A stretch of 44,977 nucleotides of DNA from a virus. Its lineage: Duplodnaviria; Heunggongvirae; Uroviricota; Caudoviricetes. The position numbers were made by a program, and so were the translations under genes. Shown in pieces: positions 34,352 through 39,580 of the stretch. The first letter of the stretch is position 1. The number at the start of each line of letters is the position of its first letter. The notes beneath the pieces are model-generated. The model did not search any database. It had not been told where the DNA came from and saw nothing but the letters and a program-made list of their open reading frames with translations. Location: IMG/VR virus record IMGVR_UViG_2563366968_000003. One strand, written 5' to 3'.

Positions 34352-35546
<1,195 letters not shown>

Positions 35547-36591: not shown

Positions 36592-36948
36592 TTAAAAAAT
36601 CAGAACGCCGTGCGGCCTCAACACCCGAAAGGCTTCTTTAAATCTCTGTCGCGAATCATCACGCCAGGCATCTTTATTCAGCCGTCCATATTTCTTTCCC
36701 ATCCAGGCGTTATCACCAACACTCTCAAGATGCGGAGGGTCTAATACAACCATCGAAAAAGATGCGTCTGCAAATGATAATGCACGAAAATCTGCGATAA
36801 TGTCAGGGCTGATAATCAAGCGTCTCCCATTGCGTAATGTGTATCCTTCTTTTCTGATATCGCTGAATATCGCCCGTTCGTCAGACTTATCGAACCAGAA
36901 CATGCGGCTGCCACAGCACATATCAAGAATGGTTGCCGGTGCACTCAC
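36592..36948 (-). pseudogene. SAM-dependent (probably DNA N6-adenine) methyltransferase, N-terminal 118-aa fragment
   Basis: Motif I-like DMCCGSRMF and motif IV-like DPPH; ORF ends without the expected C-terminal part and is followed by ORF-free DNA. Confidence 0.5.
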
Positions 36949-37367
36949 TGCGCCACGTCCTGAAAATTACCCTGATAGAAAGCCAGTATGCGCTGCATAA
37001 CTTCGCTCTTCCGGCACTCGCGACAGATTATGTTTAGGCGACTGTCGTAGCGACGTATTTCTCCGTCAGGTGATGACCAGATAAGGTCCGGATCAACCAC
37101 AGCAGGTTTCTTCACCTTTGCCCTCGAGAGTTTTTTGCGGGCGTTTTGCCAGTCCTTACGCGCCTGTTCAGAGGGGAATAACCCGTAGCCGGAGTTGTAT
37201 ACATCGCCACTGGCTACCAGCTCTCTGGCAAGAACGCTCATCAGATATCTAGTCGCACCTGTTTTAGCTTCCAGTTGCCGTAACGTCTCACGGCCGCTCT
37301 GGCGCACGAGTTCCACCACCTGCCATTTAATTTTTTCCCGCTCTTCTTGTGTAAAAACTTTTGCCAC
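36945..37367 (-). CDS. Hypothetical protein (140 aa), possible winged-helix fold, immediately after the O-like gene
   Basis: ORF in the position normally held by the helicase loader; no match to lambda P that I can recognise. Confidence 0.5.
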   Translation of the reverse strand: MAKVFTQEEREKIKWQVVELVRQSGRETLRQLEAKTGATRYLMSVLARELVASGDVYNSGYGLFPSEQARKDWQNARKKLSRAKVKKPAVVDPDLIWSSPDGEIRRYDSRLNIICRECRKSEVMQRILAFYQGNFQDVAQ

Positions 37368-37407
37368 AAGTCCCCCTTAAAATTACCTCATGACCTGAAA
37401 TCAACAC

Positions 37408-38427
37408 TTATCCTCTGAAACCAGGCGGAATTTCTGTATCCGGTTCAGAAATATGATTAACACAACGCTGTACAGGTGAACGTCCCAGGCGGATGACCAG
37501 TTCGTCCCATTTTTCGCGGAGCTTTGACGGGCTCATGATGTTTTTTACCCAGAATGGATCTCGCTGAACCCGACCAAACATTTCGCAAATTTGTCTGTGG
37601 CTTCTGCCATCCAGCATCCGCATTGTGCGCACGTCATTGGCCCAGGCAGTCCAGTTAGGCTCTTTTGGTCGCATGATCTCGCCATCATCACTGGCTGCCT
37701 GTTCGTAGAGACCCACGATCCGCCCCCAGATCCACTGCGCACACGCCAAATCCTCCCTGCTACCCCACTGGCGTTTTTTCGCACTAAACACAACCGCGTC
37801 GGAGTTCCGGGTTAAAAAATCCTGTTCAGTCGTCTGCGGGTCCGGTTGCGAAGCTTCCGGACGAAAAGTGTTTTTATTCTCTGTAGTAATCTCTGTTGTA
37901 TTCTCTGTAAGATCATCAGGCCATTTTGACCCGATGACATTGGGTCGTTTTGAACCAATGGAGCGTTTCATTTTGACCTCTTCCATCGTGTCATTTTGAC
38001 CTGATGGAGCGGCGCATTTTGAACCGATGGATTCGCTCAATTTGCCACCATCTAAAAGCTCGCTCCCATAGTTGATCGTGTAGAAATTGGTCATATCGCG
38101 CTTTGATTTATTGAGCTTTTCACAACGCAAAAGCCCCAGCGTTTTCAGACTTGCAAACGCGCGCTTTAACGTTGACTCTGACCAGAATGGGAACTGTTCC
38201 AGCCATTGTTCCGTTGTGTTATAAATCCAGCGAACACCATCACATTCCATGCCGGAGTTGGTATCTCTCAACCAGTAGTGCAGTTGTTGCAAAACAATGG
38301 CTTCGTTTAAGCCAATTTTCATTGCCAGCTGCGTGTTTATAACCAGTGGGCGTTCAGCAAAAAGAAGGCTCATAATTCCATCCAGCTTTTTGTTGGTATT
38401 GCTGTCGATACGCAAGTTTGAAAGCAA
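37408..38427 (-). CDS. Replication initiator, lambda O-like (C-terminal domain similar to O; iterons inside the gene); start may be TTG at 38427 or ATG at 38373
   Basis: C-terminus AAQWIWGRIVGLYEQAA...WANDVRTMRMLDGRSHRQICEMFGRVQRDPFWVKNIMSPSKLREKWDEL parallels the recalled lambda O C-terminus. Confidence 0.7.
   Translation of the reverse strand: MLSNLRIDSNTNKKLDGIMSLLFAERPLVINTQLAMKIGLNEAIVLQQLHYWLRDTNSGMECDGVRWIYNTTEQWLEQFPFWSESTLKRAFASLKTLGLLRCEKLNKSKRDMTNFYTINYGSELLDGGKLSESIGSKCAAPSGQNDTMEEVKMKRSIGSKRPNVIGSKWPDDLTENTTEITTENKNTFRPEASQPDPQTTEQDFLTRNSDAVVFSAKKRQWGSREDLACAQWIWGRIVGLYEQAASDDGEIMRPKEPNWTAWANDVRTMRMLDGRSHRQICEMFGRVQRDPFWVKNIMSPSKLREKWDELVIRLGRSPVQRCVNHISEPDTEIPPGFRG
37922..38060. 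repeat. Origin-type iterons: about six direct repeats of CATTTTGACC-like sequence at ~23-bp spacing inside the O-like gene
   Basis: Repeat starts near 37922, 37946, 37969, 37992, 38015 and 38039; AT-richer DNA follows. Confidence 0.6.
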
Positions 38428-38875
38428 TTGCTTTTTCTATAAGTTCGTCAGTTTCACGATCCACTACGGCAGGATCAGCAAAAAGCAGTCCGGACTCCAC
38501 CACATCGCCATATTCTTTGTTTAACCCGGCGATCATGCACGTGATGCTTTTTCCGTCAGTAATTTCACGATACAACCTGAAATCATTAATCCGGATAGCC
38601 TCCATAATTGCAGGCACTAGCGCCGTGAACTTTTCACGCTTATCCCTGGTGTCGATAGCCTTCCAGCGTTCAAATATCTTCACTCGATTAACGCCAAGCG
38701 CTCGCTGATCAATCGCGCCACCTTCATATGTGACACGCTGAACATCGATGTTCGGGCGCTCTTTCAAAGCCCAGAATGCTTCAGTGATTAATATCGTCGC
38801 CTGCTCCTGTGTCATTCCTGGTCGACATATCCAGGCATCCAGAGCCTCACGAGCCTGTTCAGGAGTGATTTTCAT
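38354..38875 (-). CDS. Hypothetical protein in the cII position (possibly YdaT-like)
   Basis: 173-aa ORF between the cro-like dicC and the O-like gene. Confidence 0.45.
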   Translation of the reverse strand: MKITPEQAREALDAWICRPGMTQEQATILITEAFWALKERPNIDVQRVTYEGGAIDQRALGVNRVKIFERWKAIDTRDKREKFTALVPAIMEAIRINDFRLYREITDGKSITCMIAGLNKEYGDVVESGLLFADPAVVDRETDELIEKAIAFKLAYRQQYQQKAGWNYEPSFC

Positions 38876-39089
38876 TGTTCAACCGCCCCGCCCGCTTCGT
38901 CTTACGATATTCATCATAAACTTTGGGATCATACTGAAGCTCCCCGCCAGATGCCTCCTGTAGACGCATCGCGCGACCTTCGGGAACTAAATCCCCTTTC
39001 CAGCTATAAAGCGAAGCCAAACGAATACCTGCTGCTTGTGCAAGTTTTGTTTTTGAACCGAAATACAAAAGAGCGTCAGTTTTAAGCAT
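38859..39089 (-). CDS. dicC: DicC, Cro-like repressor
   Basis: 76 aa MLKTDALLYFGSKTKLAQAAGIRLASLYSWKGDLVPEGRAMRLQEASGGEL. Confidence 0.85.
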   Translation of the reverse strand: MLKTDALLYFGSKTKLAQAAGIRLASLYSWKGDLVPEGRAMRLQEASGGELQYDPKVYDEYRKTKRAGRLNNENHS

Positions 39090-39099
39090 TTAAAACACC

Positions 39100-39170
39100 T
39101 TTATTGTTAGTCATAACTAACAAGATAGATGTTAACAAAAACATAGTCAATACGATTTAGCATTAGCTAA
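39100..39170. promoter_or_regulatory. dicA-dicC divergent promoter/operator region with TGTTAGT-type palindromes
   Basis: TGTTAGTCATAACTAACA near-palindrome at about 39104-39121 and TTAGCATTAGCTAAC at about 39156. Confidence 0.45.
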
Positions 39171-39172
39171 CT

Positions 39173-39580
39173 ATGGAAACAAAAAATTTAACTATCGGCG
39201 AACGCATCAGGTATCGTCGGAAAAACCTCAAACACACCCAAAGGTCTCTTGCTAAAGCCCTGAAAATCTCCCATGTGTCTGTATCACAATGGGAACGGGG
39301 TGATAGTGAACCTACAGGGAAGAACCTTTTTGCCCTCAGCAAAGTATTGCAATGCTCACCAACATGGATTCTATTTGGCGATGAAGACAAGCAACCAACA
39401 CCACCTGTTGAGAAGCCAGTTGCCTTATCCCCCAAAGAACTAGAGCTCCTTGAGCTGTTTAATGCACTGCCAGAATCAGAACAGGATACCCAGCTCGCCG
39501 AAATGCGAGCTCGAGTAAAAAACTTCAATAAACTCTTTGAAGAATTACTAAAAGCCCGTCAGCGGACAAATAAAAGATAA
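39173..39580 (+). CDS. dicA: DicA, HTH-XRE repressor of the dicB operon
   Basis: 135 aa METKNLTIGERIRYRRKNLKHTQRSLAKALKISHVSVSQWERGDSEPTGKNLFALSKVLQCSPTWILFGDE. Confidence 0.9.
   Translation: METKNLTIGERIRYRRKNLKHTQRSLAKALKISHVSVSQWERGDSEPTGKNLFALSKVLQCSPTWILFGDEDKQPTPPVEKPVALSPKELELLELFNALPESEQDTQLAEMRARVKNFNKLFEELLKARQRTNKR

Follow-up and report, generated by a model that had tools for sequence, protein, structure and literature searches.

An iteron array within the initiator gene of an Escherichia coli prophage lineage as the probable initiator-binding part of a lambda-type replication origin

Introduction

The replication origin of phage lambda lies inside gene O, where four iterons stand beside an AT-rich tract, and Stx phages have the same layout with six iterons (PMC7466680). 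In pSK41 the Rep boxes lie in the middle of rep, and the linker that they encode is dispensable (PMC5703833). Here we describe an array of six 23-bp iterons in a 44,977-bp stretch of viral DNA (IMG/VR record IMGVR_UViG_2563366968_000003; the whole of this stretch is referred to as the window), situated within the gene for an O-like replication initiator. By analogy with the described systems we consider it likely, with a probability of about 0.85, that this array is the initiator-binding half of a prophage replication origin. In every feature that can be read from sequence the origin is of the lambda type, and although origins of this kind are well known, the iteron sequence and the initiator family are, as far as we have found, uncharacterised.

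The iteron array

The initiator gene and the elements within it are listed in the direction of transcription, with their coordinates in the window and the basis of each assignment.

37408..38373, minus strand: O-like replication initiator gene, 321 amino acids (aa), ATG at 38373 (open reading frame (ORF), PHROG 391)
38053..38373, minus strand: N-terminal winged-helix domain (N-domain), aa 1-107, presumed to bind the iterons (predicted fold)
38030..38052, minus strand: iteron a, distal and degenerate, GATGGTGGCAAATTGAGCGAATC (repeat finder, self-identity)
38007..38029, minus strand: iteron b, CATCGGTTCAAAATGCGCCGCTC, left half-site plus core (repeats, core scan)
37984..38006, minus strand: iteron c, CATCAGGTCAAAATGACACGATG, full dyad and most conserved unit (repeats, core scan)
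37961..37983, minus strand: iteron d, GAAGAGGTCAAAATGAAACGCTC, core only (repeats, core scan)
37938..37960, minus strand: iteron e, CATTGGTTCAAAACGACCCAATG, full dyad (repeats, core scan)
37914..37936, minus strand: iteron f, CATCGGGTCAAAATGGCCTGATG, full dyad adjoining the 12-mer block (repeats, core scan)
37873..37908, minus strand: three 12-bp repeats (12-mers), ACAGAGAATACA / ACAGAGATTACT / ACAGAGAATAAA, proposed DNA-unwinding element (Tandem Repeats Finder, motif scan, stability)
37486..37827, minus strand: C-terminal helical domain (C-domain), aa 183-296, homologue of the lambda O C-domain (BLASTP, model)
37411..37473, minus strand: C-terminal tail, aa 301-321, VQRCVNHISEPDTEIPPGFRG, a copy of the host DnaT C-terminus (NCBIfam, PDB sequence search)

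Direct reading and a repeat finder both resolve six head-to-tail 23-bp units at 37914-38052 on the minus strand, with spacings of 24, 23, 23, 23 and 23 bp counted from 37914 up to 38052. An earlier note on this DNA, made from its letters alone, had described these direct repeats; the repeats are confirmed at the places that it gave, with the correction that the gene lies on the minus strand. The core reads CRTTTTGAMC on the plus strand and GKTCAAAAYG on the gene strand (also written GGTCAAAATG), with five exact copies (plus-strand coordinates 37922-31, 37946-55, 37969-78, 37992-38001 and 38015-24) and a degenerate sixth, CAATTTGCCA, at 38038-47. Over the 44,977-bp window GKTCAAAAYG has five exact matches against 0.51 expected, a number reached in none of 100 shuffles; all five are on one strand and within the array, and no further copy of the core is present elsewhere in the window.

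Tandem Repeats Finder reports a period of 23 with 3.7 copies (score 70) at 37948-38031, and the repeat finder gives in-register 23-nt copies at 37914, 37938, 37984 and 38007 together with a 39-nt family at 37938, 37961, 37984 and 38007, again with a spacing of 23. At lag 23 the segment 37914-38052 has a self-identity of 0.56, and at lag 46 one of 0.55. That 56% is a modest value is the one point in favour of attributing the periodicity to chance and to the biased composition of a coding region, but none of 20,000 shuffles matches 0.56 at lags 1-40 (the shuffle maximum is 0.457), and the self-alignment suggested earlier as a check thus shows a periodicity far beyond chance. The stretches of the window that are more periodic than the array all have a period of 21 and correspond to in-frame protein repeats. 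The same period also recurs outside the window. A scan of one genome per species yielded 80 loci encoding relatives of the N-domain. When 78 loci were compared with themselves over gene nt 200-800, the strongest lag fell at 22-24 bp in 68, a range in which about 3 of 26 lags would be expected by chance; where self-identity reached 0.55 or more, this was so for 39 of 40 loci. Against the shuffles, the core count and this recurrence, chance has no standing as an explanation.

The true unit is a 21-bp dyad with the consensus ATCrGGTCA-AAA-TGACCyGAT, derived from a frequency matrix of 69 units from 12 homologues, and its axis of symmetry falls on the A-tract, as is characteristic of sites bound by dimeric proteins. 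Full palindromes are found at 37984-38006, 37938-60 and 37914-36. Homologues carry a better copy, GAGGTCAAAGTGA, at the position of iteron a.

The likeness to ori-lambda is close in arrangement. The lambda iterons (at 39034, 39054, 39078 and 39101, with AT-rich DNA after them) also have dyad symmetry, a central A-tract similar to TCAAAAyG and a spacing of about 2.2 helical turns (20, 24 and 23 bp in lambda, 23-24 bp here). They occupy nt 349-433 of O, and the array of the window occupies nt 322-460 of its 966-nt gene, a central position that is in both cases between the N- and C-domains, with a low-stability tract on the downstream side of the iterons. The two differ in iteron sequence (ATCrGGTCAAAATGACCyGAT in the window, ATCCCTCAAAACGAGGGA in lambda) and in the unwinding element, which in the window consists of three ordered 12-mers and in lambda of an A-rich tract of ~40 bp. 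In having six iterons, some of them weak, the array resembles those of Stx phages P27 and 933W. The ori-lambda arrangement that had been proposed for this locus thus holds in all of its testable elements, namely the dyads, spacing, gene position, linker, low-stability block and synonymous constraint.

Two sets of variants affect the array. E. coli alleles of 290 aa (proteins P0136-P0141) lack exactly aa 116-146, an in-frame, iteron-to-iteron deletion of 93 nt that equals four iteron periods (23+23+23+24) and leaves two units, reminiscent of the r-deletions of lambda ori. The orthologue in Shigella flexneri CP182557.1 is 95% identical but contains 11 indels of a single base each, spread over the gene and including one in iteron b; either the gene has decayed into a pseudogene or the long-read assembly was left uncorrected.

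Selection on the DNA of the array

The array is translated, and the earlier note had taken it to encode a repeated peptide linker. The linker is borne out, since aa 109-174 are predicted to be disordered: in a full-length model they have predicted local distance difference test (pLDDT) values below 50 and no secondary structure, and lie between folded domains. It is the iterons (aa 108-153) and the 12-mers (aa 156-167) that encode this disordered stretch. The repetition is borne out only in part. The cores begin, in order, at codon phases 2, 1, 0, 2, 1 and 1 and give GGKLS, GSKCA, GQNDT, EVKMK, GSKRP and GSKWP, with the peptide IGSK arising from the three phase-1 units only; because 23 is not divisible by 3, one and the same core is read in three frames and yields unrelated peptides.

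Codon positions point the same way. In an alignment of nine homologues sharing the iteron type of the window, 11/97 third-codon positions of the N-domain are invariant, as against 12/20 in the iteron cores (Fisher p 1e-5) and 9/11 in the 12-mers (p 2e-6). Inside the array, variability is not higher at third positions than at first and second ones. The cores of iterons c and f are invariant at 9/10 and 8/10 positions respectively among nine homologues. Allele-level variation was drawn from a scan of IMG/VR, whose 80 loci are all at least 97% identical and have no value for diversity. Among 46 distinct close alleles, third-position variability is 36% for the N-domain and 37% for the C-domain but 12% for the array, and the 12-mers, at 0%, have no variable sites of any kind.

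A tandem repeat maintained at the protein level as a repetitive linker, with no DNA function, would agree with the translation of the region into a predicted disordered segment and with the IGSK of three units. We regard it as extremely improbable, given the unrelated peptides of the three frames, the greater conservation of synonymous positions than in the folded domains, and first and second codon positions that are no more conserved than the third. The reading in three phases, the synonymous conservation and an array sequence that keeps its position and varies with the N-domain (see below) together indicate that selection acts on the DNA. The DNA sequence of the array is selected in its own right, apart from coding constraint.

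The 12-mer block

Directly after the iterons in the direction of the gene, on the promoter-distal side, lie the three 12-mers with the motif ACAGAGAwTAm, which encode TENT-TEIT-TENK. Tandem Repeats Finder reports them as a separate period-12 array at 37878-37909, and the motif has three matches against 0.06 expected. The least stable 36-mer of the initiator gene is at 37871-37906, with a nearest-neighbour free energy (dG) of -39.8 compared to a gene mean of -49.4, and the 12-mer block at 37875-37910 has a dG of -40.3, which places it at the 98th percentile among all 36-mers of the window (mean -50.0, standard deviation 4.4). Inspection of the 12-mers by eye gave no convincing match to DnaA boxes, IHF sites or DnaA-trios, and no formal test was run.

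The adjacency of array and block bears on a possible regulatory role. Plasmid iterons serve both initiation and copy-number control, and the array could bind the initiator mainly for control (autoregulation, titration, handcuffing or incompatibility) with the true start of replication elsewhere in the prophage. Some encouragement for this comes from Stx phages, in which just four of six iterons are bound strongly and the other two are still required (PMC7466680). There is, however, no second iteron-like array or core copy in the window, the array adjoins the stability minimum of the gene, and the order of iterons followed by 12-mers is conserved across families, as expected of an initiation site. 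We therefore consider a mainly regulatory array quite unlikely.

An RNA element was also considered for this region and dropped, as Rfam gave no credible RNA family over 37300-38500.

The initiator protein

The initiator matches PHROG 391 ('replication initiation O-like') with an E value of 1.1e-91 and has PHROG cross-matches to 'DnaD-like helicase loader' families. It is 100% identical to the 'DNA replication protein O' of Escherichia phage PhiR42_1 (from ECOR13), and 98.3% and 96.9% identical to the corresponding genes of phages HannyBb and mEp460_ev081. Pfam searches with the whole protein and with each half gave no useful family, and matches to Slx4 and YLR146W-A were rejected as noise.

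The two folded domains have different affinities. BLASTP aligns the C-domain with residues 135-270 of lambda O at 34% identity over 148 aa (E 1e-26), and its modelled helices have pLDDT values of ~70-85; the same comparison shows no N-terminal similarity to lambda O. PF04492 (Phage_rep_O) has no match at E<=10 to either aa 1-110 or the full protein, and lambda O itself scores 5.7e-36. The N-domain has a predicted winged-helix fold of the RepA_N/DnaD-N kind, closest to that of the RepA_N plasmid initiators, whose N-terminal domains bind iterons, and the RepA_N model PF06970 has no match to the initiator at E<=10. Foldseek searches with the full-length model gave matches for the N-domain only and none for the C-domain. 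The 'O-like' designation of the earlier note is thus apt for the C-domain and not for the N-domain. As a C-domain homologous to that of lambda O is joined to an N-domain outside PF04492, the initiator is a chimera of a RepA_N-like DNA-binding domain and a lambda-O-like C-domain, and not a lambda O orthologue; it further differs from lambda O in its additional DnaT-like tail.

Comparison with other initiators places it between known groups. It resembles the RepA_N initiators (pSK41 and pTZ2162 RepA) in predicted fold and in layout, not in sequence: the origin repeats are central in the rep gene and the N-terminal domain has a similar predicted fold, but there is no sequence match to PF06970, the C-domain is like that of lambda O and not that of pSK41, and the gene belongs to a phage rather than a plasmid. 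With replisome organizers and DnaD-like initiators, such as ORF012 of Staphylococcus phage 37 and gp10 of Bacillus phage PM1, it shares an order of elements, in their case an N-domain, four to five family-specific iterons at 22-23 bp, and two to four in-frame ACAGAGAwTAC 12-mers; their C-domains are of other types, and their N-domains lack BLAST similarity to its own apart from one weak match (see below). Some replisome-organizer phages encode a neighbouring helicase or loader, namely a replicative DNA helicase in an Acinetobacter phage and a DnaC-like loader in a Burkholderia phage.

The C-terminal tail (peptide SEPDTEIPPGFRG) ends in VNHISEPDTEIPPGFRG; over its last 17-21 residues it is nearly identical to E. 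coli DnaT (primosomal protein I), which ends in VNTVSEPDSQIPPGFRG. It matches positions 160-179 of the 179 in NCBIfam NF002770 and the PDB DnaT chains 2ru8, 6aep and 9zbt (E 0.013-0.044), and NCBIfam and PDB sequence searches of the initiator gave nothing beyond this tail. The tail is predicted to be disordered in the full-length model, and its motif IPxGFRG is retained in enterobacterial relatives with a different C-domain. Owing to the tail, RAST calls homologues of the initiator 'Primosomal protein I'. The likeness to DnaT is, however, confined to the tail: the whole protein scores 16.2 bits with NF002770 against a cut-off of 201, and the DnaT N-terminal domain and three-helix C-terminal domain are absent, so that on its sequence the initiator is not a DnaT. 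Neither a 2026 preprimosome paper nor a 2014 DnaT structure paper states a binding partner for the DnaT C-terminal tail. Firmicutes relatives and initiators of other families (e.g. gp10 of Bacillus phage PM1) often end in SSB-like acidic-aromatic tips (..DDLPF, ..FRFDDET).

Conservation and distribution

The relatives of the N-domain come from Enterobacterales, Pseudomonas, Acinetobacter, Comamonas, Bacillota and others. The array invariably follows directly on the N-domain, but each clade has an iteron sequence of its own: GGTCAAAATGACC in the E. coli group, GGACAATTTGTCC in a second group of loci that includes Pantoea allii and Mixta, GGGCAAnTTGCAC in Pantoea septica and a Comamonas metagenome-assembled genome (MAG), GATCAAAATGATCC in Limosilactobacillus and GGACAAAATGACCC in Clostridia. 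Klebsiella phages have the N-domain, iterons and 12-mers in common with the window at 78% DNA identity, and this similarity ends exactly at the 12-mers, with a different C-domain beyond.

Of 5,426 complete E. coli genomes, 1,956 carry the origin segment, and the initiator gene is labelled 'hypothetical protein' in 6 of the 8 records listed. The array would mark where replication starts in a prophage lineage that is among the commonest of E. coli. Near-identical copies of the prophage gene also occur in MAGs labelled Bacillota and Veillonella, and distant N-domain relatives in sequences labelled Hydrogenimonas, Nocardioides and Micromonospora (L089, L091, L119 and L139/L140); these odd-taxon copies may be artefacts of binning or contamination.

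The 12-mers extend further than the N-domain. A 47-nt query containing them matches 128 phage records, and among the 60 matches listed most are in genes annotated as initiator, DnaD-like, primosomal or replisome organizer, the others being in hypothetical or unannotated genes with a few exceptions at chance level; the hosts include Acinetobacter, Staphylococcus, Bacillus, Klebsiella, Pseudomonas, Erwinia, Burkholderia and Lactobacillus. In each of seven inspected loci of other initiator families, family-specific repeats with a 22-23-bp period (self-identity 0.53-0.78) precede two to four 12-mers in the same reading frame. By BLAST, the N-domains of these loci show no similarity to that of the window, save for a weak match in Pseudomonas phage CF63a (E 1.9e-5). 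The 12-mer ACAGAGAwTAC, in two to five copies, is thus conserved at the nucleotide level in phage initiator genes from Firmicutes to Proteobacteria (loci L006, L168-L173 and L088-L167), where it accompanies unrelated N-domains and at least three types of C-domain. Codon usage agrees with this: across ~45 loci the Thr and Glu codons within the 12-mers are ACA and GAG in 118 of 118 cases, compared with 387/1,432 (ACA) and 687/1,533 (GAG) elsewhere in the same genes. Lambda has one copy of the 12-mer, TCAGAGAATTC, just to the right of its AT-rich tract.

Two of these loci have features of their own. In Stx1a phage Stx1_14040 (2489-2615) an O gene with an unrelated N-domain has 23-bp repeats (GGnTTTCCC..CCGCG), of which there are at least three, with four 12-mers after them, and shares with the window only the DNA of the 40-bp 12-mer block, at 97.5% identity. 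The gp16 of 'Xanthomonas phage SU1' (OR842880.1) is highly similar to ORF012 of Staphylococcus phage 37 (AY954958.1), with near-identical N-terminal halves, which suggests from the sequences that the SU1 record is mislabelled or contaminated.

Full-text literature searches for ACAGAGATTACT, ACAGAGAATACA and TENTTEITTE found no paper in the library searched, the matches to TEITTE and TENTTE being unrelated words, and the literature gave no directly relevant description of origin repeats in 'replisome organizer' genes nor of 'initiator-solo' modules. The nucleotide conservation of the 12-mers across phyla is the most interesting lead to emerge, and the 12-mers and the DnaT-like tail outrank the iterons in interest. 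It is conceivable, although we hold the proposal to be doubtful in its entirety, that a winged-helix domain, 22-24-bp iterons and ACAGAGAwTAC 12-mers form, in this order, a pan-bacterial and apparently undescribed grammar of phage origins, in which the 12-mers would be more than AT-rich DNA, namely a sequence-specific element read by a conserved component of host replication (e.g. as an entry site for the replicative helicase or primase) regardless of the N- and C-domains. The Enterobacterales branch would then dispense with a P-type loader and engage the host machinery through its DnaT-mimicking tail; other branches end in SSB-like acidic-aromatic tips. The arrangement offers a transferable rule for recognizing a phage origin, namely 22-24-bp repeats followed by ACAGAGAwTAC 12-mers within an initiator gene, and if the 12-mers and the DnaT-like tail function as proposed they would represent conserved host contact points used by many unrelated phages.

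Genomic context and a proposed course of initiation

The genes surrounding the initiator are arranged as in lambda, in the order cI / cro / cII-like / initiator and then a ren-like gene.

39122..39150, minus strand: pR-like promoter, TTGACT-17-TATCTT (consensus scan only)
38859-39089, minus strand: cro, DicC-like (Pfam P22_Cro; PhiR42_1 annotation)
38354-38875, minus strand: cII-like gene (Pfam YdaT_toxin; PHROG 163 'CII-like transcriptional activator')
36945..37367, minus strand: DUF977 / LygF / Ren-like gene, in the place of lambda P (Pfam DUF977 5.1e-29; PHROG 142 'Ren-like exclusion protein' 1.6e-47)

The cro and cII-like genes are upstream of the initiator in the same orientation and transcription unit, with a divergent helix-turn-helix repressor beyond them, and the pR-like promoter would drive the cro, cII-like and O-like genes and transcription through the origin. 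A gene for an S-adenosylmethionine (SAM) methyltransferase follows the DUF977/Ren-like gene.

Several points weigh against the array being the initiator-binding half of an origin. Just three of the six units are full dyads, the other three being half-sites or degenerate; the 12-mer block is only moderately AT-rich (37871-37906 has 28% GC); and by sequence the N-domain matches no curated initiator family in Pfam. No P-type, DnaC-like or DnaB-like gene was found after the initiator among the ORFs or with Pfam and PHROG, so that the helicase-loading step is conjecture, and a P-type helicase-loader gene is likewise absent downstream in homologous phages. This is a further difference from lambda, in which helicase loading needs P, and the replication module would be 'initiator-solo', a term that is said to go back to Weigel & Seitz 2006. 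Finally, an ORF of 338 aa for an IS5-type transposase lies at 34498-35514, ~2 kb downstream of the replication module, and because of it the window could be a defective prophage.

This last point leads to the alternative of an origin that is genuine by descent but survives as an inactive relic in a defective prophage. The transposase, the absence of a helicase loader gene by Pfam and PHROG, and the natural 290-aa alleles without exactly four iterons would all be in keeping with it. Yet the initiator ORF is intact, and the gene and origin are 100% identical to those of the deposited phage PhiR42_1; moreover, synonymous sites are under strong purifying selection in the 46 alleles, and occurrence in more than a third of complete E. 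coli genomes (1,956/5,426) argues for continuing function. We consider a relic unlikely. PhiR42_1 also has transposase genes downstream of its initiator gene.

If the array is indeed the initiator-binding half of a working origin, initiation might follow a course modelled on lambda O at ori-lambda and on pSK41 RepA. Dimers of the N-terminal winged-helix domain would bind the dyads, with the three full palindromes, including the one that adjoins the 12-mers, probably acting as strong sites and the half-sites and degenerate unit probably as auxiliary ones. The A-tracts, phased at 23 bp, would wrap the DNA into an O-some-like complex, and the stress of wrapping together with transcription from the pR-like promoter would melt the adjacent 12-mer block, at which the host DnaB helicase would then be loaded. 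Since P, DnaC-like and DnaB-like genes are absent, the lambda-O-like C-domain and the DnaT-like tail would probably recruit the helicase by their action on host proteins, a speculative step in which we place low confidence.

The immunity region (38859-39580) is of the DicA/DicC type, with cro annotated as DicC in PhiR42_1 and a repressor whose sequence we take to resemble DicA, and on this account the window looks like an intact relative of the Qin prophage of K-12. At the other end of the window, tandem repeats with periods of 21, 42 and 189 at 329-764 encode Ala/Ser/Thr-rich repeats (AAKTSETNAK...) within the ORF at 162-1307, the product of which looks by eye like the N-terminal part of a side tail fibre. 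The neighbouring ORF at 1366-1965 looks like a Lom-type outer-membrane protein, and tail-fibre-like and Lom-like ORFs are ordinary features of lambdoid phages.

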